Positions 1,697 through 64,000 of a stretch of 64,000 nt of DNA are shown in pieces. The translations under genes and the position numbers were made by a program. Each line of letters starts with the position of its first letter. The first letter of the stretch is position 1. The notes beneath the pieces are model-generated. The model was not told the DNA's origin. It saw only the letters and a list, made by a program, of their open reading frames with translations, and did no database searches. This DNA is from Bacteriovoracaceae bacterium. GTDB taxonomy: Bacteria > Bdellovibrionota > Bacteriovoracia > Bacteriovoracales > Bacteriovoracaceae. The stretch lies in NCBI GenBank assembly GCA_965224385.1, contig CBDCYX010000012.1, positions 246,426 to 310,425 on the forward strand, read 5' to 3'.

Positions 1697-1699
1697 ATA

Positions 1700-3530: not shown

Positions 3531-3538
3531 TTAGAGGA

Positions 3539-4085: not shown

Positions 4086-4127
4086 TATTTTTTGATAAAG
4101 AGGTCTTCTGGGCATAAGGCCAAATGG

Positions 4128-4181
4128 TCCTTTTTGACTGGCCGCACTTCACCTTTACTCGACATGGGGCATTATACCTTT
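4128..4181 (+). repeat. Right terminal segment of IS21 copy 1
   Basis: CTTTTTGACTGGCCGCACTTCACCTTTACTCGACATGGGGCATTATACCTTT recurs with 3 substitutions at 58879-58931. Confidence 0.7.
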
Positions 4182-4186
4182 ATTCT

Positions 4187-4642: not shown

Positions 4643-4887
4643 AAGAACATTAAAAAAATTTGCGACTTATAATAAAAGGCCCTTGCTCTTGAGTCAAACC
4701 GTTTCTTCGTATCATAAACATCTCCTTGCCGAAAACGGGAGTGTGGAACAACGGGTAAACCCGTCATAAAAACTTTCAATTTAATGGCGTAGAAAGGAGA
4801 TGTGAATAATCGATATTATTCACAGTCGTTTGTTGACACGGTGAGTTAAATTAAAAAATATCCACACAGACTACGAGTCCAGACTTC

Positions 4888-4922
4888 GGCCGAGATCGCT
4901 CGGCCCTAAAATCTAGTTTTAG
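4888..4922. terminator. Two adjacent hairpins between convergent genes (possible terminator region)
   Basis: GGCCGAG-ATCG-CTCGGCC (4888-4905) then CTAAAA-TCTAG-TTTTAG (4906-4922), immediately after the stop of 4923..5963. There is no clean T-run. Confidence 0.35.
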
Positions 4923-5963
4923 CTATCTTTTCTTACCGAGTTCTTTTTCAATCATTTTTATATCTTCTTCAGAAAGTTCCGTACTCTCTTTGATAATTTC
5001 AAAATCAACCCCTCCTTGCAGCAATTTTAAGGCAACTTTTTTCTTCTCTTCTTGCTTCCCTTCTTGTTTCCCTTCTTGTCTCCCTTCTTGTCTCCCTTCT
5101 TGTCTCCCTTCTTGTCTCCCTTCTTGTCTCCCTTCTTGTCTCCCTTCTTGTCTCCCTTTTTGGATTCCTTTTTGCATTCCTTTTTCTACGGCCTCATCCA
5201 AAGTACTTTTAAATAACTGCATAATTCTCTCCTCCTTATCTTCAACGGTTTTTTGTTCTATTAATTCTATTCTCTTCCAAGTAAATTTTGGGTCAAATCT
5301 TTTAATATAATCCACGGCCTTGACCATTTGATCTTTTTTTTCCTCTAAATTCAGTGGCCCACTTATCGTAAAAAGTTCCGAAACCGTCTTTTCATCGAGA
5401 TGCCAAATCCTCTGTAAAACAAAAAGAATCGGTGCCAATGTTTGAGTTTTTGATTGTTTTTTGACATCAAGGTCATGGACGTTTAGCAAAATCGGTTCGA
5501 AATTTAGAATGTGTTTTGCAAACTCCTTTCTAACCGAGGGTAAAAATCCCTCAAGAGCATCATGGAATTTTAAAGATTTTTGAAAAGTCTTTATTTTCCC
5601 GTGATAGAAAACAACGGGGATTATAGGAACAGGTAGCTTTTTATACATTACTGCTTGATATTCTAAAAGTTGAAACAAGAGGTTATTATCCTTGTAGGAC
5701 TTATGCTCAATAAGAAAGATAATCTTTGCTTTTTGTCCTTTGCGTCCGCCTTTGAAATTAACGGAAAAGATAAGGTCTGTTCTCTTCTCAGACCCTTCAG
5801 GGGTAAAAAATGTTTCCATCTCCGATCTGAGAGTGTCCCAATTAAAAAGGTTGAATTGAGAAGGACGAAGAACAAGTTTTAGAAATTCAACTCCATAGCG
5901 TTTTGTCGAGAAGAACTCTTTAAAAAAGTTGTTGTGGACATTGTCTTGTTGCTTGCTTGTCAT
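4923..5963 (-). CDS. Rpn/YhgA-like PD-(D/E)XK 'recombination-promoting nuclease / putative transposase' family protein
   Basis: N-terminal ..NNFFKEFFSTKRYGVEFLK.., nuclease-core-like TDLIF ... IIFLIEHKS, a (GRQE)n/(GKQE)n low-complexity linker and a C-terminal ..ALKLLQGGVDFEIIKESTELSEEDI.. helix-turn-helix-like tail. Confidence 0.75.
   Translation of the reverse strand: MTSKQQDNVHNNFFKEFFSTKRYGVEFLKLVLRPSQFNLFNWDTLRSEMETFFTPEGSEKRTDLIFSVNFKGGRKGQKAKIIFLIEHKSYKDNNLLFQLLEYQAVMYKKLPVPIIPVVFYHGKIKTFQKSLKFHDALEGFLPSVRKEFAKHILNFEPILLNVHDLDVKKQSKTQTLAPILFVLQRIWHLDEKTVSELFTISGPLNLEEKKDQMVKAVDYIKRFDPKFTWKRIELIEQKTVEDKEERIMQLFKSTLDEAVEKGMQKGIQKGRQEGRQEGRQEGRQEGRQEGRQEGRQEGKQEGKQEEKKKVALKLLQGGVDFEIIKESTELSEEDIKMIEKELGKKR
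5052..5159 (-). repeat. 12-bp tandem repeat x9 inside the Rpn-like gene (encodes GRQE x7 + GKQE x2)
   Basis: Units TTGTCTCCCTTC (plus strand) counted directly. The first two and the last unit are slightly variant. Confidence 0.95.
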
Positions 5964-6104
5964 AAATTTTTAATGCTGTTTTATTGTTCTACTTGCTATC
6001 ATCCTGCAACGCTATAGTCAAAAAGTTTAAATCCAACTTTCAAGAATAGCGCATTGCGAAATCTATTTTTCTAATTTTTTAGACCATACCCCTGTTGTTT
6101 AACT

Positions 6105-6183
6105 GTAAGCGTTCCATAAACCCACCCCTATATTTCCCTAACTTGATCCGGGTTGCCCTCCAGGCCAAAAAACCTTTCACATA
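6105..6183 (-). repeat. 79-bp repeat, inverted partner of 218-296
   Basis: See 218-296. It ends 28 bp before the left end of IS21 copy 2. Confidence 0.7.
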
Positions 6184-6313
6184 CCGTAAAAAAAACATTC
6201 CTCCTCCCCCTGTTACGTCCCAGCATAACGTTACCAGTTTTAGGGTATAAATTCCCACCCTAGGTTACCACCTAAGAAAGCATCCATAATGGAATATTAA
6301 GTTCAACTATTCC

Positions 6314-6874
6314 ATGGAGGTAATTATGGATCGTTTCAACAAGAGGTGTTTGATGGATCGCAAAATTGTTCAATTGCTCATAAACGGGAAAAGCTTTAAT
6401 AGAATCGCTCGGGATCATCATGTGAGCAAAATTCGTATTAGAAAGGTAAAAGAGAAGGCCCTAAAAGCAGGTTATTTTGACGGACGAGAGATTCCGCCAA
6501 CTCCTGAGGCACTTTATCTTAAAAAGGCCGTTGAGATAGGGCCTTATGCGGAATTAATGATAAAGACGATTTTGCTTTTCGGTAGAGGTTTTGTAGATAC
6601 CAGACAAGTCTGGGGTATTTTACATTTAGTTAAGGATTATCCAAAATCTCAAGTAGAGAATGCCTGTAAAAATGCTTATGAATGTGAGCAGATAAGTTAT
6701 CGATCTGTATTGTCGTTTTTAAACCTTCTACCTGTTCAAGAAAATATTAAACCGATGGGTGAAAATAAGTTCATCAGAAAGACAAAAGAATATTTTAACG
6801 GCCATACCGAGTGTAACCATCAAGAAGTAGGGGCCACACCTGTATGTCCGTTAACAACTAAGGAGAAATTATGA
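6314..6874 (+). pseudogene. istA: IstA-like ORF retaining the N-terminal HTH and C-terminal tail but missing the DDE core
   Basis: Only 186 aa. It has HTH-like LINGKSFNRIARDHHVSKIRIRKV and then a C-terminal-type segment (..VWGILHLVKDYPKSQVENACKNA..). No DDE region is visible. Its stop overlaps the istB start. Confidence 0.6.
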
Positions 6875-7653
6875 GTACAAAGACATTACAAACATTGCTG
6901 CGTTCCTTGAGACTAACAACGGCGGCAGAAGAATTAGAGGAAGTTTTAAGAGAATTTCGAGGGGCCTCTCTCAATCCTTTTATTAATCTTTTACAAAGGG
7001 AACAAGATGCTCGTAGGGAAAGACAATTAGAAACAAGGATTAAAAGGTCTAATCTTCCAGAGTTAAAGAGTCTAGAAGATTTTAATTGGAATTTTAATGA
7101 GACTATCGACCGTAAGAAGATTGAGTCGTTGGCAACATTGGATTTTATCAAAGAGCAAGATTCAGTATTGTTTTTAGGGCAACCGGGAACAGGAAAAAGT
7201 CATCTTGCTGCCGCCATAGGGTTGAAGGTTATTTTGGAGGGAGGGAACATCTATTGGAGCAACATAAAAACTCTATCGGAAAATATCATGAAGGCAAAAG
7301 CAAAAAACGAACTCGGGAAGCTCTTCAGAAAGGTCTTAACGAGCAATTTATGGATTTTAGATGACTGGGCAGTGATTGGCCTAGGAAGAGAAGTTTCTGA
7401 AGAAATCTTCGACTTATTAGACAAGAGGAAGTACAGCACGGCCCTTCTCTTAACTTCCAATAGAGATATTAATGAATGGCCTCAAGTATTCAGTGATCCT
7501 GTCCTAGCGAGTGCCGCAATAGATCGAATATTTGACCGACCTAGAATGACAATCTTCACAGGAAGAAGCTACAGGGCCGAAGGGAAAAAAGACAAAAAGG
7601 TGGAAAAAAAAATGCTTTTAGGAGTTGAAAAAACAAAGGGGATCGGGGTATAA
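6871..7653 (+). CDS. istB: IstB helper ATPase (apparently intact)
   Basis: 260 aa, Walker A GQPGTGKS, Walker B LWILDDW, ATGA start/stop overlap with the upstream ORF. Confidence 0.85.
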   Translation: MSTKTLQTLLRSLRLTTAAEELEEVLREFRGASLNPFINLLQREQDARRERQLETRIKRSNLPELKSLEDFNWNFNETIDRKKIESLATLDFIKEQDSVLFLGQPGTGKSHLAAAIGLKVILEGGNIYWSNIKTLSENIMKAKAKNELGKLFRKVLTSNLWILDDWAVIGLGREVSEEIFDLLDKRKYSTALLLTSNRDINEWPQVFSDPVLASAAIDRIFDRPRMTIFTGRSYRAEGKKDKKVEKKMLLGVEKTKGIGV

Positions 7654-7767
7654 AATATTTAGGTGGTAACGGGGCGTGGGAATAAAGTGGTAACCGTTAC
7701 CTGGGATTTGACAACCCCCTAGGTATATTTCTTGACCCTCTCTTTTCTCGCAGATTCTATTTTCCAC

Positions 7768-7936
7768 TCAAACTTGAAGAAATTCATTTAAGAGAAAACA
7801 AAATTTGAAGGTTGAAATGATGTTTTCTTGCGAAATAGCTTTTTTCAGAGGGAAAATAAATTTTTTTTCAAATTTGAATAAAGTAAAATTGTAACGATTA
7901 TCTTATTGTTAACTATGAGAACTCCTGACTCTCCAG
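7768..7936 (+). repeat. IS-end-associated repeat ending in the terminal repeat GAGAACTCCTGACTCTCCAG
   Basis: 7768-7848 matches the reverse complement of 58751-58833. The 20-bp end (7917-7936) matches the reverse complement of 58729-58748. This copy has ~65 extra bp between the two parts. Confidence 0.65.
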
Positions 7937-8433
7937 TTATTTTAGGTATATGCTTAGTGAACGAACATGTCATCCGCCTATTGCATAAATAGCGCACGAT
8001 GGGTGGGAAGAGGGGGGAGGTCGAGTAATTGGTCTCTCTACCTGACAGATAGGGAGTAAGATTTTTAAAACGGCCGTTAAATCTTGTAAGAGAAAGAAAT
8101 ATTTTTGGCATGATTTGAAGTTTTTTTATCAATTTTTTCATTTTAAAGATTGGGATTCGTTTCTAGAATTTATTATAGAGAAGCATACGCCCTTCCTTGA
8201 TACATCTTAAAAATTTAACTATTTTCTGCCAAAAATATAACTTTTTTTGGACTGCTAAGTTCAGGGGGTGTTTCTTTGTTAGAACCTCTCCTGAAATCTA
8301 TTTTTTTCAAAAGAAACCTGAAATTCGGCAAAAAAGGTTGTTTTAAGCTATTCTCAAAGGGTTGCCGCCCTTTAGTTCCCCTGAGGGAAGGATTTTTTGT
8401 GACCTTGTGCATAAAGCGAGAAAAACTGCTTCT

Positions 8434-33800: not shown

Positions 33801-34623
33801 ATGTTTTTCGTTTGTTATGACTATAGCATCTCCACAGTTATCCATCCTAAGCAATGGGAGGTTTCGTTTAGAGGGAGGAAGAAGTTTATCCTTGATTTGA
33901 GAGTTGACTTTAAGAGAAGTGATGCCAAAGCAAATGATAAATCTGAGGTCGCCCATGTTGAAATCCAGACTACGCCCGAAACTCATTTTGCCGATCGCCT
34001 TTTAGCATATTCAAGTAGACTTTATTCGGAACAGTTAAGATCGGGAGAAACTTATAAATTTCTGGCACCGGTTTACTCATTAGTCTTCATGACGGCAAAC
34101 CTGAAAGAATTTGAGTCCCTTGAAGATGAGTATTACCACGTTTGCAATATTAGGCGAACAACTAAACCTGATTTGATACTGACTCGGGGAATGTGTTTTG
34201 TGATTGTTGAACTGACTAAATTTAAGAGAAAAAAAGTTAAGGATGTACACGGGCAACGTGAGGCCTGGTCTTATCTCCTGAAAAATTCTGGCAAGATGGA
34301 TCGGGGTAGAATATAAAAAACTACAAGAGAAGGGAGAAGTTATGGCAGAGGCCGTAAAGCGTTTATGGGATATTTCACAAAATGAAGGATTAAGAGAATT
34401 GCTTAGAGTCCAAGAGCGAGAGAGAATGGATAGGGCCAGCAGAGAAGAGACGGTTCGCATGGAGGGGTTGGAGAAGGGACTGGAGAAAGGGCGAGAAGAA
34501 GGGGTGAAGGAAACGGCCTTGAAGATGCTCGCTAAAGGTCTTGATTTCAAAGATATTTGCGAGTTTACAGGTCTTTCAAAAAAAGAAATTGAAAATCTCA
34601 AAAATGCTTTTAAAAATTCTTAA
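33801..34623 (+). pseudogene. PD-(D/E)XK Rpn-like nuclease/putative transposase, N-terminally degraded and frameshifted
   Basis: ..KKFILDLRVDF..VAHVEIQTT.. core in ORF 33801..34316. The C-terminal ..ALKMLAKGLDFKDICEFTGLSKKEIENL.. tail is in a second ORF (34342..34623). Confidence 0.65.
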
Positions 34624-34632
34624 AAGGGGAAG

Positions 34633-37600
34633 TTATGGCAAGTGTGAGTAGTCGGAATCTCCAAAGGGAATACCGTAATTTCCTTCCGTCCCTTTGAACA
34701 CACGATCGAAAACAACACAAAAGGCGGAGTCGGGGCAGTCGTCATTAGGATCGGTTGAACCGTCGAGTTTTGTCGCCGTATAAGGTAAATCCACGTTCTG
34801 CTTACCCGCCCAACTTGCGTCGTCGTTAACTTTCGCTACGATCTTATCGGCAATCTCCTCTTTTGTAAGATTGGAATTTCCAAGGCCGGTGTGTACGCTA
34901 TCGAGGTTGACGGTTTTATCTCCGGTTCCCGTATAGTCCTCCGAGATAACCCATAGTCCTTCTGCTCCGGCAGCGCCGCTTCCTCCAGTGAGGGGGATAT
35001 TGATCTCTACGCGAGTTCTTGTGCAGTTTCCGCCGTCATCGTCGTGGTAGATAGTTAAATTCAATCCGTTAAAGACGGCGGAGTTAACGGTTGCCTCTAT
35101 TTTGTCATTGCCTTTTTTAGCTAACGTCACATTGGTTCCCGCCATGTTCACGGGGGAACCGATCTTTGCAATCAGACTATCTATAACATTGGTAATCATT
35201 GTGCTGCCTCCAGTATTGTACGTTAGCGGTGTCGAATACTCCTTAAGAATCCAAGAACCGCCAAGGGTTCGGCCGGTAAATGCTAGAGCACAAATCTTCC
35301 CGCCTGCATCTGCTTCCAGTGCCGTCGCCGTTGGTGTAGAAACTGCCGTAAGCGTTGCCGTTTCTCCCGTACTCGTTCCCGTTCCGTCGGAACCGCCTGT
35401 CATCGCAACTTCTCCTACGATCTTTCCATAAAAGCCGGTCTCGGCGGCATCAAAATTTTTTCCCCAACACTTAACGGAATTGCCCGATTCCATAATAGCG
35501 CAAGTGTGGTCGTAACTTGCCGCAATTTGAATAGCGGTTTGTCCAACCAAGGGGTCGCCCGCCGTGCCTCTTAAAACCCGATCGGGACCGGAAGTACCGC
35601 CTCCTATCTCACCGTTGTCATTAACCCCCCAACACTTGACGGTCTTATCGCTTAAGAGAACACAACCGTGCTGTGCCCCCAACGTAATCTTTGTGGCGGT
35701 TTTGCCCACGCCTAAGACGGGGAAGCCGAGGTATCCCCAGCACACAACGCTAGCATCGTTGAGGGTGGCGCAAGAACTTGTGCCACCAATTGCAATCTTG
35801 GTGGCGGTTTTGCCGCTACCTAAACTCGGAGTCCCACCGCCTGTTTGCCTGAGGTGATTATACCCCCAGCACTTAACGGAGTTATCCGTTGTTAAGATGG
35901 CACAGGTGTGGAACTCTCCTGCCGCTATATGACTAGCGGTTCCGCTGCCTAAGGGGCTGCCTGACGTACCGCTTTTTGTTTTGTTGGCACCGGCAGTTCC
36001 GCCTCCGCTCTGCCCCCTGTTATTGCGCCCCCAACACTTGACGGTATCGTCGTTTAAAATAGCACAGGTATGCTCTCTTCCTACCGCCACGGACTTGACC
36101 GTGTTAGGGTTGCCGTCTCCATCGTTTCCTACGGCGGTAACAGCTGTCGGGGTGCTTCTAGGGCTAGTATCGCCAACTCCCAGTTGTCTGTTGGAGTTTT
36201 GCCCCCAACACATTAAACGCCCGTGGTTTAAGTTTCCGTTTTTTAAAATAATGCATTGGTGGTTGCGCCCCGACACAAGAGCTTGGGACGTATGGCCCCC
36301 TAAATCCTCCTTGATATGACTTCTCCAAGGGAAGGCACTAACTTTCCCCCATGATTCCACCTCACCGTTATCAAAAAGGACGCGACTGGTGTCTTTTCCA
36401 AGGGCGAGCGTTTGGGGTCTCGCTTTATTGCACATTCTTCCCGATATTGTATAACCCGAGGCACAGGAAAAGGGGCAGGAATCGGCATCGGTGGCAGCTC
36501 CCGATACCCAAGCACCAAAGTTCGGAGTACCCGAAATGTCCGTGCAGGAGACCTCGGCACCCAATGAGTCCACGTAAGTTCCTTGTGTCGGATACTTACA
36601 CCCCCCGGCAGAAGTATCCTTCACATAACCGGCAGTACAGGAAAATGGGCAAGCGGTGTCCGTTGAGGCGGCACCCACTATCCAAGTAGCGACTGCCGTT
36701 CCTTCAGTCGTAATAGCAGTACAGGGGGACTCGGTATTTCCGGCGTTGACGTATTTTCCCTTCGTTGGATAGTTACACTCCCGAGCAGAGGAATCCTTCA
36801 CAAAACCTGCATTACAGGAAAAATCGCAACCGTCAGCAGAATCAACTGCTCCGGTATTTTGCAAAAAGACGTCAAACCCGCTTGCGGCACCTGTGGGGTT
36901 ATCGCAACTTTGCTCGTTTCCTGAACTATCCGCATACTTTCCCGTATCTGGGGTAGCGCACGTTCTACCCACCGTTTTTTTCACAAATCCGGCATTGCAG
37001 GAAAAACCGCAATCGGTAGCAGAATCAACCGCTCCCGTGTTTAGCAAAAAGGTGTTAAACCCACCCGTGGGGTTGTTGCAACTTTGCTCGTCGCCTGAAC
37101 TATCCGCATACTTCCCAAGACCGGGAATATTACACGCCCTACCGGTTTTCACGAAACCCGGACTACAGGAAAAGGGGCAAGCGTCTGCCGTTGCGGCGGC
37201 ACCCCGTATCCAAGTGGCGGTCGCCCCTCCTTGAAGCGTAGTAATAGGATTGCATGATACCTCGGTACCACTCGCATTGACATATGTTCCTTTTGAAGGA
37301 ACGTCACAAGTACTACTTGCCGTGTTTTTTAAATAACCGCCGTCGCAGGTGTAACAGCCGTCCGCAGAGGAAAGTTCCGTTGTTGTCGTAGCAGAAGAAT
37401 GGGGAGGAGTCGGACAAGCTGTCCGAGCTTTGTCGTTTGCAGGAGAATAGAACCCCGATGCGGTTTGTTGGCATTGGGCAGTGTCTACATCATTATCATA
37501 TCCTGCATCGCAAGTCTCCACGGTACAAGTCGTGCTAAAATCGTCTGTGTTTGTATCCCAGAGGTTGAGTCCCCCTCCGTTGGGGACGGGATTAACGGGA

Positions 37601-38295
37601 TTAACGGGACAAGAGCGGGACTTGTTACAGGAAAAAAGAGATTCGCTCTTTGTAAATCCACTGTTACAGGAAAACTCACACTTATCGTTACTTGCCACGG
37701 GAGCAGTGTTGTTTTCCCAGTGAGAAAACCCTCCCGACGGAGTCTCGCCGACATCATTGCAACTCTGTAGATTTCCTTGGGCGTCGTAGTACTTCCCCTT
37801 ACCGGGAAGCGTACATTTTTTGTTGCTTGTATTCTTTAAAGACCCCGCCTTACAGTTCCAGCAGTCGGTTTCCGATTTAGTCCCCGTGGCGGTGTTCCTA
37901 AGAGAATGAGGGGGAAACGTTGTCAGGCATTTTTTCCTAGTCTTGTCCTTTGCGAGAGAGTAGTACCCTGCCTGAGTTTTTCCACATTGTGCTGGATTTG
38001 CAACATTATCATATCCCGCATTACAAGAGACGACTTTGCATGTTGTGCTATATTTTTTGGTTTTGGTATTCCAAGGAAGTTCTCCCTTCCCGTTGGGAAT
38101 AGGAGTCGTACACACTTTAGCAGCTTTAGCTTTTTTACTCGAAGAGGTCGAATCGCCGCCACCACCACTGCTCCCACCACAGCCCGACAGTAAGAGAAGA
38201 GAGAGAAACGTGTGATAAAGGCAGAGCTTCATGTGACCGATCCAAATAGTCGGGAAGGGGTGGGGTAGCATGAGAATATTTTTAAAAGGTTTCAT
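34633..38295 (-). CDS. Large surface lipoprotein: Cys-rich ~50-aa repeats + 7 RCC1-like blades + conserved C-terminal module (family member P1)
   Basis: AAGGAG 6 nt upstream of the ATG at 38295. Lipobox LLLSGC. Repeats of type C.F.C..G..K....C..P..G.Y. Seven (C/S)WG motifs. C-terminus ..DDCPDSAFCVVFDRVFKGTEGNYGIPFGDSDYSHLP. The alternative start at 38232 is also possible. Confidence 0.85.
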   Translation of the reverse strand: MKPFKNILMLPHPFPTIWIGHMKLCLYHTFLSLLLLSGCGGSSGGGGDSTSSSKKAKAAKVCTTPIPNGKGELPWNTKTKKYSTTCKVVSCNAGYDNVANPAQCGKTQAGYYSLAKDKTRKKCLTTFPPHSLRNTATGTKSETDCWNCKAGSLKNTSNKKCTLPGKGKYYDAQGNLQSCNDVGETPSGGFSHWENNTAPVASNDKCEFSCNSGFTKSESLFSCNKSRSCPVNPVNPVPNGGGLNLWDTNTDDFSTTCTVETCDAGYDNDVDTAQCQQTASGFYSPANDKARTACPTPPHSSATTTTELSSADGCYTCDGGYLKNTASSTCDVPSKGTYVNASGTEVSCNPITTLQGGATATWIRGAAATADACPFSCSPGFVKTGRACNIPGLGKYADSSGDEQSCNNPTGGFNTFLLNTGAVDSATDCGFSCNAGFVKKTVGRTCATPDTGKYADSSGNEQSCDNPTGAASGFDVFLQNTGAVDSADGCDFSCNAGFVKDSSARECNYPTKGKYVNAGNTESPCTAITTEGTAVATWIVGAASTDTACPFSCTAGYVKDTSAGGCKYPTQGTYVDSLGAEVSCTDISGTPNFGAWVSGAATDADSCPFSCASGYTISGRMCNKARPQTLALGKDTSRVLFDNGEVESWGKVSAFPWRSHIKEDLGGHTSQALVSGRNHQCIILKNGNLNHGRLMCWGQNSNRQLGVGDTSPRSTPTAVTAVGNDGDGNPNTVKSVAVGREHTCAILNDDTVKCWGRNNRGQSGGGTAGANKTKSGTSGSPLGSGTASHIAAGEFHTCAILTTDNSVKCWGYNHLRQTGGGTPSLGSGKTATKIAIGGTSSCATLNDASVVCWGYLGFPVLGVGKTATKITLGAQHGCVLLSDKTVKCWGVNDNGEIGGGTSGPDRVLRGTAGDPLVGQTAIQIAASYDHTCAIMESGNSVKCWGKNFDAAETGFYGKIVGEVAMTGGSDGTGTSTGETATLTAVSTPTATALEADAGGKICALAFTGRTLGGSWILKEYSTPLTYNTGGSTMITNVIDSLIAKIGSPVNMAGTNVTLAKKGNDKIEATVNSAVFNGLNLTIYHDDDGGNCTRTRVEINIPLTGGSGAAGAEGLWVISEDYTGTGDKTVNLDSVHTGLGNSNLTKEEIADKIVAKVNDDASWAGKQNVDLPYTATKLDGSTDPNDDCPDSAFCVVFDRVFKGTEGNYGIPFGDSDYSHLP

Positions 38296-38408
38296 AAAGC
38301 TCTCCTTGCTTTTAAATGTGGTTAAAAAATAATAGTCCTCCTTTATAATAAATTTTGAACACCGAAAACGCAAAAGATTTTTATATTACCGATTAAAATG
38401 GTTCATTA

Positions 38409-53531: not shown

Positions 53532-54155
53532 TTAAAATGTTTTCGGTTTAAATTCTTTTCCGTTGACGAAGGTACTTATTTTAGCGTCACTCTTGGGAGA
53601 TTGAATCAAGAAAAGTCCCTGCTCATCAATATATTCTTTTATCTCTTCTTCCGTATGGCCTTTGTCATCAATAGTGAGATAGGCAACTCCTCCGTAAACG
53701 GTGCGACTTTCAACAAGGCCCGAGCAGTTTGCTTTAAAATCTTTGAGTTGTCCTAAAAACTTTGTGACATTGTCCTTGATAAGCGTCGTCTTGACCTCAA
53801 ACGCCACGCCCTCCGCTCCATTCACGGCCACAAGGTCGTACTCCGCAACCTGTTTACCTCCCCTAAATCCCTTTACCCTCTTGTGTAAATCGTCAACCTT
53901 GATGCCCCTGTCTTGAAGAAGAGAAATAAGATTACCTCCAACAAGGTTCTCCATAAAACGACCCCACTTGTTGTTAAAATTACCGTTCGCCTTATCTATG
54001 TTGTCGCCAAGTTTTTTTAAATATTCTTGGGTTTCTTGCAGGGCCTTCTCTGTTTTTTGCTGGGCCAATTCTGTTTTTTGTTGGGTTTCCACTAGGCCCT
54101 CAATGGCCCCCCAAGCATCTTCTAAACTTGATTTTCTTTTGGTCGTTGTGGACAT
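53532..54155 (-). CDS. PD-(D/E)XK-type nuclease-fold protein with an N-terminal coiled coil
   Basis: Coiled N-terminus (TELAQQKTEKALQETQEYLKKL). Core EYDLVAVNGAEGVAFEVKT (D...E.K). A truncated paralog lies at 58394-58684. Confidence 0.55.
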   Translation of the reverse strand: MSTTTKRKSSLEDAWGAIEGLVETQQKTELAQQKTEKALQETQEYLKKLGDNIDKANGNFNNKWGRFMENLVGGNLISLLQDRGIKVDDLHKRVKGFRGGKQVAEYDLVAVNGAEGVAFEVKTTLIKDNVTKFLGQLKDFKANCSGLVESRTVYGGVAYLTIDDKGHTEEEIKEYIDEQGLFLIQSPKSDAKISTFVNGKEFKPKTF

Positions 54156-54777: not shown

Positions 54778-55096
54778 AAGGCACTTAGGACGATTGGAAA
54801 AGGCCTTTAAATGTAAAATATGATCCTTACTAGGATAGAAGGGTTTGAACGCTTAAAAAGGCGATTTTGCTCTTTTTTTTTAAAGTTAGTTAAAAATGAA
54901 TAAAAAAAAGCTAGGGGGGTTTGCTTAAATGTTTACCGTCTCGGAGTTCCGAAGGCAAGTAGTAGAAAGTGGGCCCCTACCCTCGAAATTCACCGTTCTC
55001 AATAACAACACAAGGAGATGTTTATGATACGGAGAAACGGGTTGACTCAAGAGCAAGGGCCTTTTATTATAAGTCGCAATTTTTTTTAATGTTCTT

Positions 55097-58000
55097 TTAA
55101 TGTGAGTAGTCCCGATCCCCGAAGGGGATCCCGTAATTTCCTTCCGTTCCTTTGAACACACGCCAGAAGGCGACACAAAAGTCGTTGGCGGGGCAGTCAT
55201 CGCCGGCATCGCTTGAACCATCGAGTATTGTCGTCGTGTAAGGTAAATCCACGTACTGTTTACCCGCCCAGTTTACGTCGCTAACTTCAGAAACGATCTT
55301 ACTGGCGATGCCCTCTTTTGTAAGAGAGGAAGTTCCAAGGTCAATATGTACGCTATCGAGGTTGACGGTTTTATCTCCCGATCCGCTAAAGTCGTTCGAG
55401 ATAACCCATAGTCCTTCGGCCTCAGCGGCCCCGCTTCCTCCGGTAAGGGGGATAGCGGTTGTTACTACAGTACCTGTTGTGCAATCTCCGCCGTTATCGT
55501 CGTGGTAGATAGTTAAAGTCATTCCATCAAGGATGGCGTTGTTAACGGTCGCCTCTATTTTGTCATTGTCTTTTTTAGCTAACGTCACGTTAATTGTTCC
55601 CGCTACGTTCACGGTGGAACCGATCGCCGCAATCAGGTTATCTATAGCATCGGTAATCGCCGTACTGCCTCCCCCATTATACGTTAGCGGTGTTGTATAC
55701 TCTTTAGCAACCCAAGAACCAAGGGTTCCGCTAAGGGTTCCGCCGGAAAGTTCTATCTTACAAATCTGCCCGTCTTCATCCGAGTCCAAGGCGGTTGCCG
55801 TCGGTGTAGCAACTGCCGTAAGTACTTGGGACTCTCCCGTACTCGTTCCCGTTCCATCGGTTCCGCCTGCCATCGCAACTTCTCCTACGATCTGTCCGTA
55901 AAAGCCGGAGTCGTTTTCATCAATATTACTTCCCCAACACTTAACGGAGTGATCCGACTCCATAATGGCGCAATTGTGTTCGTAACCTGTCGCAATTTCA
56001 ATAGCAGTTTGTCCACCCAAGGGGTCGCCCTCCGTCGTGCCTCTTAAAACACGACTGGAAGCATCAACCCCGCTTCCTAGCTGACCGACAGGGTTCCTCC
56101 CCCAGCAGTATACAGTCTTATCGGTTAAGAGAGCACAAGCGTGATTTCCCCCCACCGTAACCCTAGTGGCAGTTTTGTTAACCCCCAAGGAGGGGGAAGG
56201 GATTCTCTTGTTTCCCCAGCACTTAACGCTAGCGTCGTTGAGAATGGCGCAAGAAGAGATGTCTCCCACTGCAATCTCGGTGGCGGTTTTGTTAACCCCT
56301 AAATTCGGTGTCCCGCCGCTGGTTTGCCCCCAGGCATTGGTCCCCCAGCATTGAACGGTGCTATCTGTCAAGACGGCACAGGTGTGCCATCTTCCCGCCG
56401 ATATGCGATTAGCGGTTGTGCTACCTAAGGGGCCACCTACCGTGCCGCTTATTGTGTTCTTGGCACCGGAGCCGCCTCCTATCTGCCCGTTGCTGTTCTG
56501 CCCCCAGCACTTGACGGTATCGTCGTTTAAGAGTGCGCAGGTATGCTCGTCTCCCGCCGCCACGGACTTGACCGTCTTGGGGGTCGCCCCGTCTCCGGTG
56601 TCTCCCAAGACGGCAACGCTAACATCTGTCGGAGTGCTTCTCGGGTTAGTATCGCCAACTCCCAGTTGTTCGCCGCCGTTTTGCCCCCAACACATTAAAC
56701 GCCCGTGGTTTAAGCTTCCGTTTTTTAAAATAATGCATTGGTGGTTGTACCCCGACTCAAGAGCTTGAGGCGTATTATTACCTAAGTTCTCCTTGATATG
56801 AGTTTTGAAAGGGGAGGTACTAACACTCCCCCATGCTTCCACCTCACCGTTATCAAAAAGGACGTGACTGGAGCTTCTCCCAAGGGCGAGGGTTTGGGGT
56901 CTCGCTTTATTGCACGTTCTTCCCGATATTGTATAACCCGAGGCACAGGAAAAGGGGCAGGAATCGGCATCGGTGGCAGCTCCATCTAACCAAGAACCAA
57001 AGCCCGTCATACCCGTAATGTTCGTGCAACCGACCTCGGTACCCGATGCGTTGACGTAATTCCCGAGTGTTGGATACTTACACTCCCGAGCAGAGGAATC
57101 CTTCAAATAACCGGCACTACAGGAAAAGGGACAGGTGGCGGCCGTTGCGGCGGCACCCGCTATCCAAGTAGCGGTTGCCGTTCCTTCAGTCGTAATAGGA
57201 TTAGAATCACAGGATGCCTCGGTATTTCCGGTGTTGACGTAATTTCCTGTGGAAGGAAAGTTACAAGACCTTCCGCTTTTCACGAAACCTGTACTACAGG
57301 AAAACCCGCAACCGTCGGCGGCAGACACCGCTCCCGTATTGGCGACAAAGTCATCAAACCCTCCTGTGTCTTCCGTGATAGGAGAGCAAGATTTCTCTAC
57401 TCCGTTATCCGCATAATGTCCCTTACGGGGAATATTACACGCCCTCCCGCTTTTCACAAAACCTGTACTACAGGAAAAGGGACAGGCGTCTGCCGTTGCG
57501 GCGGCACCCGCTATCCAAGTAGCGGTTGCCCCTCTTTGAAGCGTAATAGGACTGCATGATACCTCGGTACCACTCGCATTGACATGTTTTCCTTTTGAAG
57601 GAACGCCACAAGTATTTTCTCCCGTGTTTTTTAAATAACCGCCGTCGCAGGTGTAACAGCCATCCGCAGAGGAAAGCTCCGTCGTTGTCGCAGGAGAGGA
57701 GTTGCTAGGCGTAGGGCAAGCTGTTCGGGCATTATTGTTTGCAGGCGAGTAAAAGTTCGCCGCCGTCTGTTGGCATTTTGTCGGGTCTTGGGTGTTGTCG
57801 TATCCTCCAGCACAGGTAAAACAAGCGTCTGCGGAAGAGCGCCCTGTCGTTGTCGTAGGAGAGGAGTTGTTAGGCGTAGAACAAGCGATTCGGGCATTAT
57901 TGTTTGTAGGCGAATAGTAGGTCGCCGCCGTCGGTTGGCATTCTGTTTTATCCACGACGTTGTCGTAACCTGCATCGCAAGCAGTTATTGTGCAAGTCTC

Positions 58001-58249
58001 GCTATGCTTTTTTGTCGTTTTATTCCAAACTTTTTGACCGCTACCGTTGTCGGTAGTGCAAGCTTTTGGTTTCGTGCTAGAGCTTGCCCCCGACGAATCC
58101 CCGCCGCCGCCGCCACTGTCACTGTCACTACCGCAGCTCGACAGTAAGAGAAGAGTAGCTACGAGAAAGTGGGGTCTCATTAATTCCACACCAAGAAGAG
58201 TGAGGTACCGTAAAAAAGTAAAGGTGTTTTTTGTGAGGATTGTTTTCAT
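55097..58249 (-). CDS. Large surface lipoprotein of the Cys-repeat/RCC1 family (member P3)
   Basis: AAGGAG 8 nt upstream of the ATG at 58249. Lipobox LLLSSC at the same distance (39 aa) as in P1. Seven (C/A)WG motifs. C-terminus ..DDCPANDFCVAFWRVFKGTEGNYGIPFGDRDYSH. Confidence 0.85.
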   Translation of the reverse strand: MKTILTKNTFTFLRYLTLLGVELMRPHFLVATLLLLSSCGSDSDSGGGGGDSSGASSSTKPKACTTDNGSGQKVWNKTTKKHSETCTITACDAGYDNVVDKTECQPTAATYYSPTNNNARIACSTPNNSSPTTTTGRSSADACFTCAGGYDNTQDPTKCQQTAANFYSPANNNARTACPTPSNSSPATTTELSSADGCYTCDGGYLKNTGENTCGVPSKGKHVNASGTEVSCSPITLQRGATATWIAGAAATADACPFSCSTGFVKSGRACNIPRKGHYADNGVEKSCSPITEDTGGFDDFVANTGAVSAADGCGFSCSTGFVKSGRSCNFPSTGNYVNTGNTEASCDSNPITTEGTATATWIAGAAATAATCPFSCSAGYLKDSSARECKYPTLGNYVNASGTEVGCTNITGMTGFGSWLDGAATDADSCPFSCASGYTISGRTCNKARPQTLALGRSSSHVLFDNGEVEAWGSVSTSPFKTHIKENLGNNTPQALESGYNHQCIILKNGSLNHGRLMCWGQNGGEQLGVGDTNPRSTPTDVSVAVLGDTGDGATPKTVKSVAAGDEHTCALLNDDTVKCWGQNSNGQIGGGSGAKNTISGTVGGPLGSTTANRISAGRWHTCAVLTDSTVQCWGTNAWGQTSGGTPNLGVNKTATEIAVGDISSCAILNDASVKCWGNKRIPSPSLGVNKTATRVTVGGNHACALLTDKTVYCWGRNPVGQLGSGVDASSRVLRGTTEGDPLGGQTAIEIATGYEHNCAIMESDHSVKCWGSNIDENDSGFYGQIVGEVAMAGGTDGTGTSTGESQVLTAVATPTATALDSDEDGQICKIELSGGTLSGTLGSWVAKEYTTPLTYNGGGSTAITDAIDNLIAAIGSTVNVAGTINVTLAKKDNDKIEATVNNAILDGMTLTIYHDDNGGDCTTGTVVTTAIPLTGGSGAAEAEGLWVISNDFSGSGDKTVNLDSVHIDLGTSSLTKEGIASKIVSEVSDVNWAGKQYVDLPYTTTILDGSSDAGDDCPANDFCVAFWRVFKGTEGNYGIPFGDRDYSH

Positions 58250-58393: not shown

Positions 58394-58684
58394 TTAAAAT
58401 GTTTTAGGTTTGAAGTCGTTTTTATTTGTAATGCTTGCGCTGTCTCCAGTTGCTTTAATCACAAAAAGTCCCTGCTTTTCTGAATATATTGTCGCATGAA
58501 CATCATATCGAAGATAACCAACGGCACCGTAAACTTGTTTTGAAGAATACTCGGGGAATATTTCTTTAAAAATCGCTAACTTTTTTAAAAAGTACTTCGT
58601 ATCGTCAATTCTTAAAGTAGTTTTCACCTCAACAACAATGACTTCATCTCCATTCACCGCAAGAATATCAAATTCATAATTCAT
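58394..58684 (-). pseudogene. 5'-truncated paralog of the PD-(D/E)XK protein at 53532..54155
   Basis: MNYEFDILAVNGDEVIVVEVKT...FKPKTF aligns with the C-terminal half of the 207-aa paralog. The first 22 codons of the track ORF derive from the IS terminal repeat at 58729-58748. Confidence 0.6.
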
Positions 58685-58878
58685 TTTTTCTTCTTTATGA
58701 GGACGAACTCTTGTCATTGTCTTATCTACTGGAGAGTCAGGAGTTCTCATTCTGAAAAAAAGCTATTTCGCAAGAAACCATCATCTCAACCTTCAAATTT
58801 TGTTTTTTCTTAAATGAATTTCTTCAAGTTTGACAGGAGTTCTTGACCCCTCTATGGAATCTACGAAGTTTAAAAGAC

Positions 58879-58931
58879 CCTTTTTGACCGGCCGCACTTC
58901 ACCTTTGCTCGACATGGGGCATTGTACCTTT
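58879..58931 (+). repeat. Solo right end of IS21 copy-1 type
   Basis: Matches 4128-4181. No istA or istB is adjacent. Confidence 0.7.
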
Positions 58932-58955
58932 GGGGATTCCGATTACTCATATTAG
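58929..58955 (+). pseudogene. Last 8 codons plus stop of another family member (FGDSDYSY*), all that remains after truncation at the IS21 end
   Basis: TTTGGGGATTCCGATTACTCATATTAG compares with the ..IPFGDSDYSH termini of the intact paralogs. Confidence 0.6.
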
Positions 58956-59013: not shown

Positions 59014-60000
59014 ATGAAGATTTCAAAACGCTTTATTCACGACATTTTTTTTAAAGAAATCTACGCCGATAAAAGGTATTCCCTAGATATTTTTAAACTT
59101 GTTTTAACGAAGACCGAGTACTCCCTTTTCGATTGGAAGACGCTTAAAAGTGAGCTGACGAGTTTTGTCGATACCGAACAACGGGAAAAACGCATGGATT
59201 TAACGTTTTCGGTAAAACTGAAACGAGGAAAGCAAACGGCGAGGATACTCTTTCTTCTTGAACACAAGAGCTACCGTAACGATGATTTGCTCGTTCAAAT
59301 GCTCGAATATCAAACGGGCATTTATCGCCGAACCCGAACCCCGGTTATCCCCATTCTCGTCTACCACGGGAAAGAAAAGAAATGGCGAGGCGTTCTCAAT
59401 TTTCAGGACTCCCTAAAGGGATTAACTCCGACGGTTAGGCGAAAGTTTCAAAAGAATATTTTAAACTTCACCTGTAAACTGCTCAACATTAGGGAACTGA
59501 ACATTCGAGGTTCGGCAAAAAAGCTCGTTACGGCGCCGGTTCTTCTTATTTTGCAACAAATTTGGAAACTCGATGCAAACAATGTTGAAGAGTTCTTTTT
59601 GCTATCTCAGCATTTACCTGACAAAGAACGAAGAGACCTGATAATGAAGGCGAGCAACTACATAAGAAAAAACGATCCCGGTTTTCATTGGCATCGTTTA
59701 ATTGAAATAGAGGAAAAAGTTATAACAGAGAAAGGAGAGAGAATTATGTTTTCATTAAAAGACACTCTTGACGAAGTGAAGGAAGAGGGACGACAGGAAG
59801 GAATTGAAAAAGGAATTGAAAAGGGAATTGAAAAGGGAATTGAAAAGGGACTCTTAAAAGGACGACAAGAAGGAATTCAAAAAGGAAAGCAAGAAGTTGC
59901 GTTAAAACTTGTAAAGAAAGGTTTTGACCTTGAAGACGTCGCCGAGAGTACGGGGGTTCCTAAAGACGACCTTGAAAAACTGCGCGGGTCTTTAAAATAA
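59014..60000 (+). CDS. Rpn/YhgA-like PD-(D/E)XK family protein
   Basis: ..FFKEIYADKRYSLDIFKLVL.., MDLTF...ILFLLEHKS, a (GIEK)4 linker and a ..ALKLVKKGFDLEDVAESTGVPKDDL.. tail. Confidence 0.75.
   Translation: MKISKRFIHDIFFKEIYADKRYSLDIFKLVLTKTEYSLFDWKTLKSELTSFVDTEQREKRMDLTFSVKLKRGKQTARILFLLEHKSYRNDDLLVQMLEYQTGIYRRTRTPVIPILVYHGKEKKWRGVLNFQDSLKGLTPTVRRKFQKNILNFTCKLLNIRELNIRGSAKKLVTAPVLLILQQIWKLDANNVEEFFLLSQHLPDKERRDLIMKASNYIRKNDPGFHWHRLIEIEEKVITEKGERIMFSLKDTLDEVKEEGRQEGIEKGIEKGIEKGIEKGLLKGRQEGIQKGKQEVALKLVKKGFDLEDVAESTGVPKDDLEKLRGSLK
59800..59847 (+). repeat. 12-bp tandem repeat x4 (GGAATTGAAAAG; encodes GIEK x4)
   Basis: Counted directly. Confidence 0.9.
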
Positions 60001-60701: not shown

Positions 60702-61321
60702 ATGAAAAATAAGCAACAAGACAATGTCCACAATAACTTTTTTAAGGACTTTTTCTCGACAAAACGTTATGGAGTCGAATTCCTAAAACTTGTCCTTCGT
60801 CCTTCACAATTCAATCTCTTTAATTGGGACACTCTCAGATCGGAGATGGAAACTTTTATTACTCGCGAAGGCCTAGAGAAGAGAACCAACCTTATCTTTT
60901 CCGTTAATTTCAAAGGTGGACGAAAGGGGCAGAAAGCAAAGATTATCTTTCTTATTGAACACAAGGCATACAAAGACAAAAAGCTCTTGTTTCAACTTTT
61001 GGAATATCAAGCAGTCTTGTATAAAAAGGAACCCGTCCCCATCATCCCCGTTGTTTTCTACCATGGAAAAACAAAAACCTTTAAACACTCTTTAAATTTT
61101 CATGATTCTTTAGAGGGACTTCTACCTTCGGTTAGAAGAAAGTTTGCAAAACACATTCCCAATTTTGAACCGATTTTGTTAAAGGAAGGCAAGAAGGAAG
61201 GAGAGAGGTTGCCTTAAAACTTCTTCAAGAAGGGGTCGATTTTAAAGTCATCAAAAAAACTACGGAACTTTCTGAAGAAGAAATAAAAGTCATAGAAAAA
61301 GAAATTCTTAAGGAAGGATAG
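60702..61321 (+). pseudogene. Rpn/YhgA-like gene with an internal out-of-frame deletion
   Basis: The first ~160 codons are near-identical in protein to 4923..5963. The frame breaks at ..EPILLKEGKKEGE... The C-terminal ALKLLQEGVDFKVIKKTTELSEEEI.. continues in another frame to 61321. Confidence 0.75.
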
Positions 61322-61514
61322 TTAAAAAGAGATTTTGCCTGTGTGTGGGGAGACTTTAAAAAAGTTTGTGTATGAGTGAGGCCTTCTTTATCTCAGTATC
61401 CAAAATAATGGAGAATGCTCTCTGGCGATTTTTTGTTTTTTTTGGGCAGCAGTGTTATTTTGGTAATTCTTTGTGAATTTTTTAAGGAATGTAAACAGGC
61501 CCTAGTAATAATTT

Positions 61515-62624
61515 CTAAAAAACTAAAGAGACCTGTACTCCACTCATTTCTGAGAGTTTTATATTGTTAACGTATTTTTTTCTGGGTTTTTTATGAGTAA
61601 CACTGATTTCCAAAGGCCAAAATTTAACCCTGTTGGAAAACGTTGTATACTCGGCATCCAATTGCCATGCTAGATTCATCTGTAGTCTGTCTTTAAAAAA
61701 GATAAAACTTCCAATCCCTCCTCCATAATAACCGTCTTTGATCTCGTAATCCTTTCTCTTGTGAACGCCGATAAAAGGTAGTATTTGGAAGGCACCGATT
61801 CTGTGTTTATACTTTATGTCGTATCTCAAAACAGGGGTGGCATTATAAATAATTTTTCCGGCCTTCTCTTTATTGTCCGATAGCTTCACCACGGGAATCT
61901 CTTCGATACCCATGCTGATTTGAAGGTTTTTCCTTGTATATGTTGTGGTATAATCAAGATTTAAAAATGTTGTATTATTATTCTCTTCTTTAGAACTTCT
62001 ACGTTTTGTGATAGATTTCTTATCCTTGGACAGCTCTTTCGCATCGGCCTGCGTGTGGGAGTCGGTTCTACTAAGTTTGTAAAGATTAATCGCCCCTCCC
62101 CACCGCTTTCTCTCACCGACTTTATAATCGGTGAACAATCCCACCTTTGTTTCAAGATTTATATAGTTGATTACATGGTCGTCACTTGTATCAATATAGG
62201 GAGGAAGATTAGGGGTATCTTTTTTTACCATCGTTACAAGTCCTCCGCCGGAGAACATAAATCTTATGTTTGGTTCAAATTGAATGCGTCTGATATTAAA
62301 AGAAAACAAAGAGATACCGATTTCGGTAAACGCTTTTGCAAAAAACTCGGAGTTAATGTATTTGTCGATAAAACCCAGAGCATTTTTCAATTTTTTGTCG
62401 TCCGAAGTCTTCTCTTCGGATAGTTTTTTACTTTCATCGATAAGATCTAAAATATCACTCATACTTAAAGAAAGGGTAAGAAAATGGTTGTCTGCAGTGA
62501 CGGGGTGTAAATATCGAGTGTAGGTTTGATATCGATCATCAAGAATTTGATACCTCTTAACGAGAACATTGCCCTGAATATTCCAAGCAGAAAAAGAGAA
62601 TAGGCCTAAGAGAAAAACTTTCAT
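61515..62624 (-). CDS. Putative outer-membrane beta-barrel protein
   Basis: Start chosen at MKVFLLGLFSFSAWN (signal-like). Alternating-polarity strands and a C-terminal ..VQVSLVF (terminal Phe). Confidence 0.5.
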   Translation of the reverse strand: MKVFLLGLFSFSAWNIQGNVLVKRYQILDDRYQTYTRYLHPVTADNHFLTLSLSMSDILDLIDESKKLSEEKTSDDKKLKNALGFIDKYINSEFFAKAFTEIGISLFSFNIRRIQFEPNIRFMFSGGGLVTMVKKDTPNLPPYIDTSDDHVINYINLETKVGLFTDYKVGERKRWGGAINLYKLSRTDSHTQADAKELSKDKKSITKRRSSKEENNNTTFLNLDYTTTYTRKNLQISMGIEEIPVVKLSDNKEKAGKIIYNATPVLRYDIKYKHRIGAFQILPFIGVHKRKDYEIKDGYYGGGIGSFIFFKDRLQMNLAWQLDAEYTTFSNRVKFWPLEISVTHKKPRKKYVNNIKLSEMSGVQVSLVF

Positions 62625-63020
62625 ATTAATATTATCTTTTGGATTCCCACTTATTGTCAATTGCGGCAAATTAGGCCATAGAGGTTTTTTTCCATTTTTT
62701 TTTTGATGGTTTTCTGGGATTTTAGGCCATAACAATCGAGAGTTATTATCAGTTTTAGACCTAAAAAAGACTCATCAGCTTCTTCATCACTCGTTGGAAA
62801 ATCAATTGAGAAATCTGTCCAACCTTGCCACCAAGTATCTTGGCCCCTCCCGGCAGGCCCAACAGCACCCATAGCTCCTTTAAAATTTTGCTAACCAAAT
62901 CGGATTTATCCTCTTAGCATTAGTTGACTTTACACAACTCGATACCGGGGCCGCTTTTGAAATTACGGTTTTTTTTAACTCCGATCGAAGGAATCATAAA
63001 AAAACACGGGTTTTACCGCT

Positions 63021-64000
63021 TTAGTGTTCGTAGTCCCGATCTCCGAAGGGGATTCCGTAATTTCCTTCCGTCCCTTTGAACACACGCCAGAAGGCGACAC
63101 AAAAGTCGTTGGCGGGGCAGTCATCGCCGGCATTGCTTGAACCGTTGAGTATTGTCGTCGTGTAAGGTAAATCCTTGTACTGCTTACCCGCCCAGTTTAC
63201 GTCGCTAACTTCAGAAACGATCTTACGGGCGATGCCCTCTTTTGTAAGAGAGGAAGTTCCAAGGTCAATGTGTACGCTATCGAGATTGATGGTTTTATCT
63301 CCCGATCCGGTAAAGTCGTTCGAGATAACCCAGAGTCCTTCTGCTCCGGCGGCACCGCTTCCTCCGGCAAGGGGGATAGCGCTCGTCACTACAGTACCTG
63401 TTGTGCAATCTCCGCCGTTATCGTCGTGGTAGATAGTTAAAGTCATTCCGTCAAAGACGGCGGAGTTAACGGTCGCCTCTATTTTGTTGCCTTGTTTAGA
63501 CAAAGTCACGTCGGTTGTCGCCAAATTTACGGGGGAACCGATCGTTGCAATCAGGTTATCTATAGCAGCGGAAATCGTCGTACTGCCTCTCCCATTATAC
63601 GTTAGCGGAGTTGTATAGTTTTTAACAACCCAAGGGTCGCTAAGGTTTCCCTCGGAAAGAGTTAGAGCACAAACCTTCCCTCTTGCATCTGCTTCCAGTG
63701 CCGTCGCCGTCGGTATAGAAGTTGCCGTAAGCGTTGCCGTTTCTCCCGTACTCGTTCCCATTCCGTCGGATCCGCCTGTCATCGGAACTTCTCCTACGAT
63801 CTGTCCGTAAAAACCATTGCCATTGTTATCAATATTACGTCCCCAACACTTAACGGAATTGTCCGACTCCATAATGGCGCAGGTGTGGTTGTAACCTGTT
63901 TCAACTTGAATAGCGGTTTGTCCGCCCAAGGGGTCACCCAATGTGCCTCTTAAAACCTGATGGGAACCGGCAGTTCCGCCTCCAATCTGAGCTTTGTCAT
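63021..64000 (-). CDS. Surface lipoprotein family member P4, 3' part only (continues beyond the window)
   Basis: The frame stays open to 64000 (..QIGGGTAGSHQVLRGTLGDPLGGQTAIQ..). The C-terminal module is highly similar to P3 and ends ..FGDRDYEH. Confidence 0.85.
   Translation of the reverse strand, partial: DKAQIGGGTAGSHQVLRGTLGDPLGGQTAIQVETGYNHTCAIMESDNSVKCWGRNIDNNGNGFYGQIVGEVPMTGGSDGMGTSTGETATLTATSIPTATALEADARGKVCALTLSEGNLSDPWVVKNYTTPLTYNGRGSTTISAAIDNLIATIGSPVNLATTDVTLSKQGNKIEATVNSAVFDGMTLTIYHDDNGGDCTTGTVVTSAIPLAGGSGAAGAEGLWVISNDFTGSGDKTINLDSVHIDLGTSSLTKEGIARKIVSEVSDVNWAGKQYKDLPYTTTILNGSSNAGDDCPANDFCVAFWRVFKGTEGNYGIPFGDRDYEH

Follow-up and report, generated by a model that had tools for sequence, protein, structure and literature searches.

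The stretch of DNA analyzed here, called the window in what follows, comprises 64,000 nucleotides of a Bacteriovoracaceae bacterium (C12:246426-310425, that is, contig C12 of a draft genome assembly of 2.66 Mb in 16 contigs). It contains four loci of the Rpn (recombination-promoting nuclease) family set among the members of a lipoprotein gene family. Throughout the genome, Rpn genes adjoin genes or remnants of that family through at least six independent junctions, and such adjacency is roughly three times as frequent as expected. The explanation that we favor, to which we give a probability of about 55%, is that the Rpn genes are non-autonomous toxin-antitoxin or defence genes that have spread by duplication and recombination and have repeatedly come to lie beside the 3' ends of the lipoprotein genes. 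Rpn genes are widespread, and their natural role is debated between recombination and toxin-antitoxin or defence functions.

An earlier note on this DNA, made from the letters alone, had placed four Rpn-like loci in the lipoprotein regions of the window. Profile searches and alignments found all four to be real and at those positions, with matches above the curated Rpn cut-offs (TIGR01784, PF04754 or PF12784). We add the correction that they represent three subfamilies, here R1, R2 and R3, in two deep clades, one of PF04754 type and the other of PF12784 type. Two loci are intact and two are pseudogenes (33801-34623 and 60702-61336), as had been proposed. The intact genes are an R1-type gene of 346 aa on the reverse strand at 4923-5963 (PF04754 100 bits, E 2e-28; TIGR01784 66 bits) and an R3-type gene of 328 aa on the forward strand at 59014-60000 (PF04754 99 bits; TIGR01784 70 bits). 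The R2-type pseudogene (PDDEXK_2 / TIGR01784; 33872-34640, forward strand) is truncated at its 5' end and carries a +1 frameshift that divides it into ORFs 33801-34316 and 34342-34623, the first of which matches PF12784 with 65 bits (E 1e-17) and TIGR01784 with 59.9 bits against a cut-off of 52.1. Its alignment with six paralogs of 89-95% identity extends from 33872 to 34640 and shows that an extra G (a 1-nt insertion) before 34316 breaks the frame. Since homology begins only at 33872, about 160 bp of 5' coding sequence have been lost. The second pseudogene, of R1 type, is located on the forward strand at 60702-61336, has lost about 420 bp internally, is frameshifted, and shows Asn in place of the catalytic Asp aligned with RpnA D63; its portion 60702-61217 still matches PF04754 with 87 bits. 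Judged by their sequences, these genes are true, very diverged members of the Rpn family and are new to it.

The likeness to E. coli RpnA-E and the plasmid-encoded RpnP2 (PMC5350276; PMC10400941) is one of architecture: an N-terminal PD-(D/E)XK (Transposase_31) domain with Asp and Glu at the positions of D63 and E82, a C-terminal helical domain with variable four-residue repeats and an internal RpnS start, and tandem arrays with small downstream homologs and without inverted repeats or target duplications. The Asp and the Glu are retained in both R1 and R3 when these are aligned with E. coli RpnA. They differ from RpnA in that identity is just 23-29% and Lys replaces Q84. In the described systems an internal start yields RpnS, which blocks the full-length RpnL, and neutralisation takes place only when the two have the same repeat number (PMC10400941). 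All three subfamilies possess an internal in-frame ATG preceded by what reads as a strong Shine-Dalgarno sequence: AAGGAGGAG, AAAGGAGAG and GGGGGAGG are placed 4-7 nt ahead of Met248 in R1, Met245 in R3 and Met266 in R2, respectively. The candidate internal RpnS ORFs of the intact genes are therefore 4923-5222, starting at Met248 and containing nine GRQE/GKQE repeats, and 59746-60000, starting at Met245 and containing four GIEK repeats. Across the three subfamilies the four-residue repeat (GRQE, GIEK, GMEK, GREE or GLEK, in 2 to 9 units) starts 14-40 residues after the internal ATG.

The R2 pseudogene is a particular case, as its nuclease part is destroyed while its 93-aa RpnS-like ORF (34342-34623, forward strand, TIGR01784 positions 205-272) is intact together with its Shine-Dalgarno sequence. 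This ORF begins at the conserved internal start of its subfamily, where GGAGAAGTT-ATG is kept in all copies, and carries a GLEK repeat; it is a candidate orphan antitoxin. R2 copies are trailed by partial extra copies of the small C-terminal ORF. Two tandem arrays on C12 are also informative. The repeat number differs in every array member, being 8, 6, 5, 7 and 3 GRQE units in the five-copy array (C12:73816-80364) and 4, 2, 5 and 3 GIEK units in the four-copy array (C12:407449-413205), and the copies are otherwise near-identical. Such near-identical tandem copies with differing repeat number are what one would expect if paralogous toxin-antitoxin pairs were insulated from one another by repeat number. 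We infer that the genes are RpnL/RpnS toxin-antitoxin or defence modules: each would encode a full-length PD-(D/E)XK nuclease, RpnL, and, from the internal start in the same frame, a small C-terminal RpnS, with the four-residue repeat setting the pairing of the two.

Searches with TIGR01784 and PF04754 identified 38 Rpn loci genome-wide, in about 27 independent units. This amounts to about 14 per Mb; E. coli K-12 has 5 loci, and 26 is the largest number quoted in the published description (PMC10400941). Contig C12 measures 575 kb or 21.6% of the genome, yet it holds 28 of the 38, the remainder being distributed among C13 (3), C1 (2) and the 1.79-Mb C16 (only 5). IS605-type elements are distributed in proportion to contig size, so not all mobile DNA is concentrated on C12 in this way. 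In the published cases, rpn arrays are products of tandem duplication; the genes have neither inverted repeats nor target duplications, their region ends are variable, small homologs follow them, and they are considered to move by recombination or hitch-hiking (PMC10400941). The genes studied here would have entered this lineage and later increased to about 38 loci through tandem duplication as well as segmental or illegitimate recombination. The nearest Rpn proteins in representative genomes show only about 25% identity, and neither the Rpn genes nor the lipoprotein family had matches in 40 taxonomic relatives, including 24 genera of the same family. Searches of the species-representative genome collection and the JGI metagenome collection for the C-terminal module of the lipoproteins gave no match. 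An exact-sequence look-up of the R3 protein returned no record, the only PADLOC match to the Rpn C-terminus was a weak one to a "putative invertase", and looking for a chlamydial ADP/ATP translocase gave a negative, uninformative result.

The partner family encodes large lipoproteins built of a lipobox, Cys repeats, an RCC1 propeller and an end module of 290 aa. It has about 31 loci genome-wide, 17 of them on C12, in addition to short remnants, and is put at roughly 35 members in all, most of them on C12. Many loci are fragmented; the assembly is a draft, and some of the family frameshifts may be sequencing errors. Gene calls were simple ORFs. Members in the window include three genes on the reverse strand: A (34633-38373), which has the lipobox, Cys repeats, propeller and C-terminal module; B (55097-58249), whose 5' end lies 788 bp from the R3 gene; and D (63021-64000), which runs off the window. 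Two further members are remnants on the forward strand. One is a dead fragment at 4189-4728. It joins a Cys-repeat piece (4189-4413) to the last 76 codons of a family gene (4414-4642) and closes with 86 bp of conserved family 3' flank; its portion 4414-4728 shows 97% identity to the 3' end and flank of gene B. The other is a 27-bp 3'-end remnant at 58929-58955 (FGDSDYSY*, the asterisk marking the stop), which is a genuine family tail, for it aligns to family tails with a score of 36, whereas 500 shuffles reached 24 at most. On its 5' side this remnant is cut by a 54-bp dispersed repeat (58878-58931).

The spacings that had been described between the Rpn loci and these members hold with small adjustments. 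Nine nucleotides separate the stops of the Rpn locus 33801-34623 and the convergent gene A, a gap of 280 nt separates the R1 gene from the convergent fragment 4189-4642, 58 nt separate the piece 58929-58955 from the ATG at 59014, and the fourth locus is about 1.7 kb past the 3' end of gene D, beyond an ORF at 61515-62735.

The 3' flank of the family is itself conserved. Up to about 195 bp of it are common to about nine family genes (for instance 4643-4728 and 55011-55096), and it is also kept in a related organism described below (L029:12341-12535). It may be a common 3' untranslated region or a terminator.

The earlier note had suggested asking whether Rpn genes are enriched beside family members genome-wide. 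With coarse methods that left remnants out the signal is weak: 4 loci lie at less than 1 kb, where random placement within contigs would give 1.0-2.5 (P 0.02-0.24), and 4 adjacent pairs occur, where a gene-order shuffle would give 2.6 (P 0.25). A later test added the remnants through a sensitive scan for end-module pieces and collapsed tandem arrays to units (n=27). The scan revealed a 48-bp tail, TEGNYS(T/I)PFGDSDYEH*, on the opposite strand and 14 nt past the Rpn stop in all five units of the five-copy array, as well as a second tail piece (C12:224006-224122) and an internal piece (C16:663822-663890), both beside Rpn genes; a candidate tail upstream of the four-copy array was rejected as not significant (P 0.22). 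With the remnants mapped, 8 of the 27 Rpn units stand directly next to a family gene or remnant, as compared with 2.3 expected from a within-contig shuffle (P 0.001, or 0.005 without one duplicated case) and 3.5 from a local shuffle over ±8 features (P 0.008, or 0.03 without that case). Placed on a tree of 31 Rpn proteins, adjacency must have changed at least five times, and the R2 pseudogene of the window, which belongs to the other clade, is a sixth. Within 1 kb, 6 cases fall on the 3' side of a family feature and 2-3 on the 5' side, 5' remnants having also been sought, which is only suggestive of a bias toward family 3' ends.

These figures bear on the simplest alternative, namely that there is no specific link and that both families are lineage-specific accessory DNA piled in the same repeat-rich regions, the tight cases arising by chance and co-duplication. 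Repeated bases make up 35% of C12 against 18% of C16, the window is full of mobile DNA (IS21, IS4-like and IS605 elements and a group II intron), within contigs neither the base-level test nor the first gene-order test reached more than marginal significance, and rep55 and rep83, two dispersed repeats of short length, lie no farther from family genes than Rpn does. All this would agree with mere cohabitation. However, the excess persists in the local shuffle, the adjacent cases span two deep Rpn clades, a related organism shows the same juxtaposition at different junctions, and IS605-type elements are without such proximity. Of the Rpn units, 26% are located within 400 bp of a family feature; the corresponding share of copies is only 0-10% for IS605, for its mini-elements and for three further dispersed repeats, and it is 25-29% for two short repeats that in part travel together with Rpn units. 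We consequently hold the absence of any specific link to be quite unlikely.

The anatomy of the three close junctions in the window shows how the two families meet. At 34640/34641 the Rpn unit stops 17 nt past its own stop, within the start of a duplicated RpnS segment, and is fused to the last sense codon of gene A with an overlap of 1-2 nt. Family homology stops at 34641, the final two codons and stop of gene A (LP*) lie inside the Rpn unit, and the protein ends in ...DYSHLP* in place of the normal ...DYSH*. At about 4720, where the R1 unit begins, the 86 bp of conserved family flank meet the 3' flank of that unit with an overlap of about 4 nt. At 58955 the tail stop adjoins the R3 promoter region, and a shared TCATATTA could be an 8 nt microhomology. 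The junctions examined show neither inverted repeats nor target duplications, and boundaries vary among copies of one subfamily. We rejected an autonomous insertion sequence or transposon because inverted repeats and target duplications are absent and the unit ends vary. Site-specific insertion at the family stop codon was likewise rejected, as the junctions in the window lie 0, 86+195 and 58 nt from the stop and differ in orientation.

The earlier note had left it open whether the Rpn genes drive the shuffling of the lipoprotein genes or hitch-hike. The association on which that choice rests is borne out, and of its two branches hitch-hiking fits better because the unit ends are variable, inverted repeats and target duplications are absent, growth is in tandem and tails are carried along when units are copied. 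There are signs of passenger behavior. The R3 unit and its 27-bp tail have been copied to C12:38517-39875 with 98.8% identity, at a site with no family gene within 17 kb, and the same 48-bp tail accompanies all five units of the five-copy array. The branch in which Rpn drives the shuffling finds only indirect support, considered below. On the favored explanation, the spacers past the 3' ends of large, dispensable and highly repeated lipoprotein genes would be repeated landing or retention sites for Rpn cassettes, copied cassettes would take pieces of family tail along, and the neighboring family gene would decay, leaving the tail beside the Rpn gene. Adjacency would then reflect hitch-hiking and a shared plastic neighborhood. 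The route by which the Rpn genes reached the family 3' ends, and the direction of causality, are proposed here on those grounds.

A comparison with related genomes had also been suggested, and the organism of a metagenomic sample (ENA ERZ25072854) made it possible. Its proteins show identities of 93% (AtpD), 92% (FtsH) and 79% (OpuA) to those of the window organism. Seven contig stretches were fetched through family genes (L026-L032) and three through Rpn genes (L023-L025), and the juxtaposition recurs in this relative, at L028 and L029. L029 shows a family gene with its 195-bp flank and, after these, an R2-type Rpn gene with 95% identity to that of the window organism, three small RpnS-like ORFs and a second family tail; given this second copy, the cassette is bracketed by tail repeats. 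L028 presents a 255-bp tail piece, an R2-type Rpn gene, an RpnS-like ORF and a full family gene in that order, and in L023 a 63-bp family tail lies 226 bp upstream of an Rpn gene. The positions of these Rpn-tail junctions differ from those of the window genome. No Rpn gene was found within 10 kb of the family loci in L026, L027, L030, L031 and L032, five of the seven family-fetched stretches. In L024 and L025 there is no family tail by the Rpn gene, whose neighbors are IS21 genes and a sugar-biosynthesis cluster.

One further observation on L029 concerns its three RpnS-like ORFs (L029:13581-14387): the last of them continues in frame into the final ~45 codons of a family tail, producing a chimeric ORF of 62 aa.

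The relative also permits a comparison of gene order around the window. In its stretch L033, opuA is followed by a transposase and then by atpC...atpA and ftsH. In the window genome (33688-64000 and beyond; C12:280089-329538) opuA is followed by an Rpn/family island of about 40 kb that opens with the R2 pseudogene. The ftsH-atp block appears inverted with respect to the relative and lies between two oppositely oriented family genes, C12:312616-316761 on the reverse strand and C12:329538-334112 on the forward strand.

This block is of interest for the reading in which Rpn nucleases are drivers, that is, in which the nicks or breaks they make trigger RecA-independent, microhomology-mediated template switching near their own loci, with truncation, fusion and shuffling of the neighboring family genes as the outcome. 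RpnA-D of E. coli raise RecA-independent recombination when overexpressed (PMC5350276), and Zhong et al. suggest that RpnL may initiate rpn gene duplication (PMC10400941). The junctions at 34640/34641, ~4720 and 58955 use 1-9 nt of microhomology, the adjacent family partners are truncated remnants in 6 of 8 cases, and the median distance to an Rpn gene is 3.8 kb for family fragments and 13.5-27 kb for intact family genes (P 0.03). Yet 14 of 16 intact family genes have no Rpn gene within 1 kb, the five stretches of the relative just mentioned have none within 10 kb of the family locus, and neither edge of the presumed ftsH-atp inversion has one, although family genes flank it. Moreover, deletion of the four E. 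coli paralogs left basal recombination unchanged, the effect needing overexpression (PMC5350276), and there is no known basis for a nuclease acting in cis. On balance we see the driver reading as unlikely, while ranking it ahead of the other alternatives.

Several observations nevertheless count against the favored hitch-hiking explanation and its toxin-antitoxin component. The microhomology of just 1-9 nt at the three window junctions is what nuclease-triggered template switching would leave, and the driver model also predicts that family fragments lie nearer to Rpn genes than intact genes do. The significance of the adjacency hinges on counting short remnants, the coarser tests giving P values of 0.02-0.25. 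As to the proteins, RpnA activity also needs D11 and Q84. At the latter position R1 and R3 both have Lys, the canonical residue for a nuclease, but the change Q84K abolishes RpnA activity (PMC5350276); at the former R1 has Asn and R3 retains Asp.

Two other interpretations were considered. The conserved family 3' end might be a preferred recombination site for Rpn cassettes, because the nuclease or the copying process acts there. The Rpn genes would then act in cis to truncate, fuse and reshuffle a family of variable surface proteins, and the "recombination-promoting" activity, seen so far solely on overexpression in E. coli, would have its first natural substrate; we find this rather doubtful. 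Stabilisation of repeat-rich regions by toxin-antitoxin modules is an established idea, and on it one may base the proposal that Rpn modules have been selected beside family genes through addiction, as barriers limiting loss by recombination between paralogs. Tails of random length (27-255 bp) indeed persist beside Rpn genes where the rest of the family gene is gone. Nevertheless, nothing useful is stabilised, since most adjacent partners are dead remnants, and two of the four Rpn copies of the window are themselves pseudogenes. Selection of this kind seems very improbable to us.

A parallel to the association has been published. In Wolbachia and other symbionts, a PDDEXK2 "transposase" occurs beside amplified cif/cid pairs and the Octomom module (PMC12445526, PMC13439711). 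There as here, an Rpn-like PD-(D/E)XK gene recurs next to a mosaic family that is multi-copy and recombining, in repeat-rich DNA, group II intron reverse transcriptases are nearby and the association is frequent without being absolute; in the present genome it exceeds chance, with 8 of 27 units adjacent against 2.3-3.5 expected. The differences are also evident. The host appears to be free-living and Bdellovibrionota-like, as judged from the nearest named homologs only, the partner is a giant lipoprotein family, often represented by only a dead 3' tail, and not a toxin-antidote pair, and several diverged Rpn subfamilies take the place of one monomorphic gene. The repeat-number ladders inside single arrays of one genome set the present genes apart from E. 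coli Rpn as well. Expansions of TIGR01784 are familiar from other bacteria such as Treponema denticola, with dozens of full and partial copies that are most similar within the species and often near membrane-protein genes, and they offer a lead for further comparison.

Other features were noted in and around the window. A small AHJR/NERD-like PD-(D/E)XK nuclease gene stands just upstream of family genes at three loci: 58394-58750, where it lies on the same strand as gene B, C12:329104-329527 and C16:1614532-1615039. A relative of it with 207 aa is encoded at 53532-54155 and has about seven genomic copies. Positions 1-8000 of the window are an insertion-sequence graveyard around the R1 gene and the dead family fragment, with IS21 istA/istB pieces at 764-1696, 3576-4085 and 6314-7653 and an IS4-like transposase at 2015-3481. 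Three short dispersed repeats (54-90 bp, 12-33 copies each) flank Rpn units at 6094-6183, 58751-58833 and 58878-58931 (also 4125-4189), and the 54-bp repeat recurs in every spacer of the four-copy Rpn array. At C12:442729-443641, between a heavily fragmented family gene and an Rpn gene at 444073, there are five tandem copies of a family 5' leader (the first 37 codons, with a period of about 200 bp). Finally, contig C15 (22,285 bp) consists of two to three repeats of a unit of about 9.8 kb. Hits recur in register at 1098/10909/20723 and at 5211/15024, and the contig may be a concatenated small replicon or a tandem amplification.

The association of Rpn-like PDDEXK2 genes with an amplified, recombining family is thus already on record (PMC12445526, PMC13439711), and what is new here is the host lineage, the partner family, the copy density and the repeat ladders within arrays. 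Beyond intracellular symbionts, the genome offers a second case in which Rpn-like genes accompany an amplified mosaic family, and it has an unusually dense Rpn set with 38 loci, 14 per Mb and three subfamilies. If the driver reading were true, Rpn activity would be linked to surface-protein variation.

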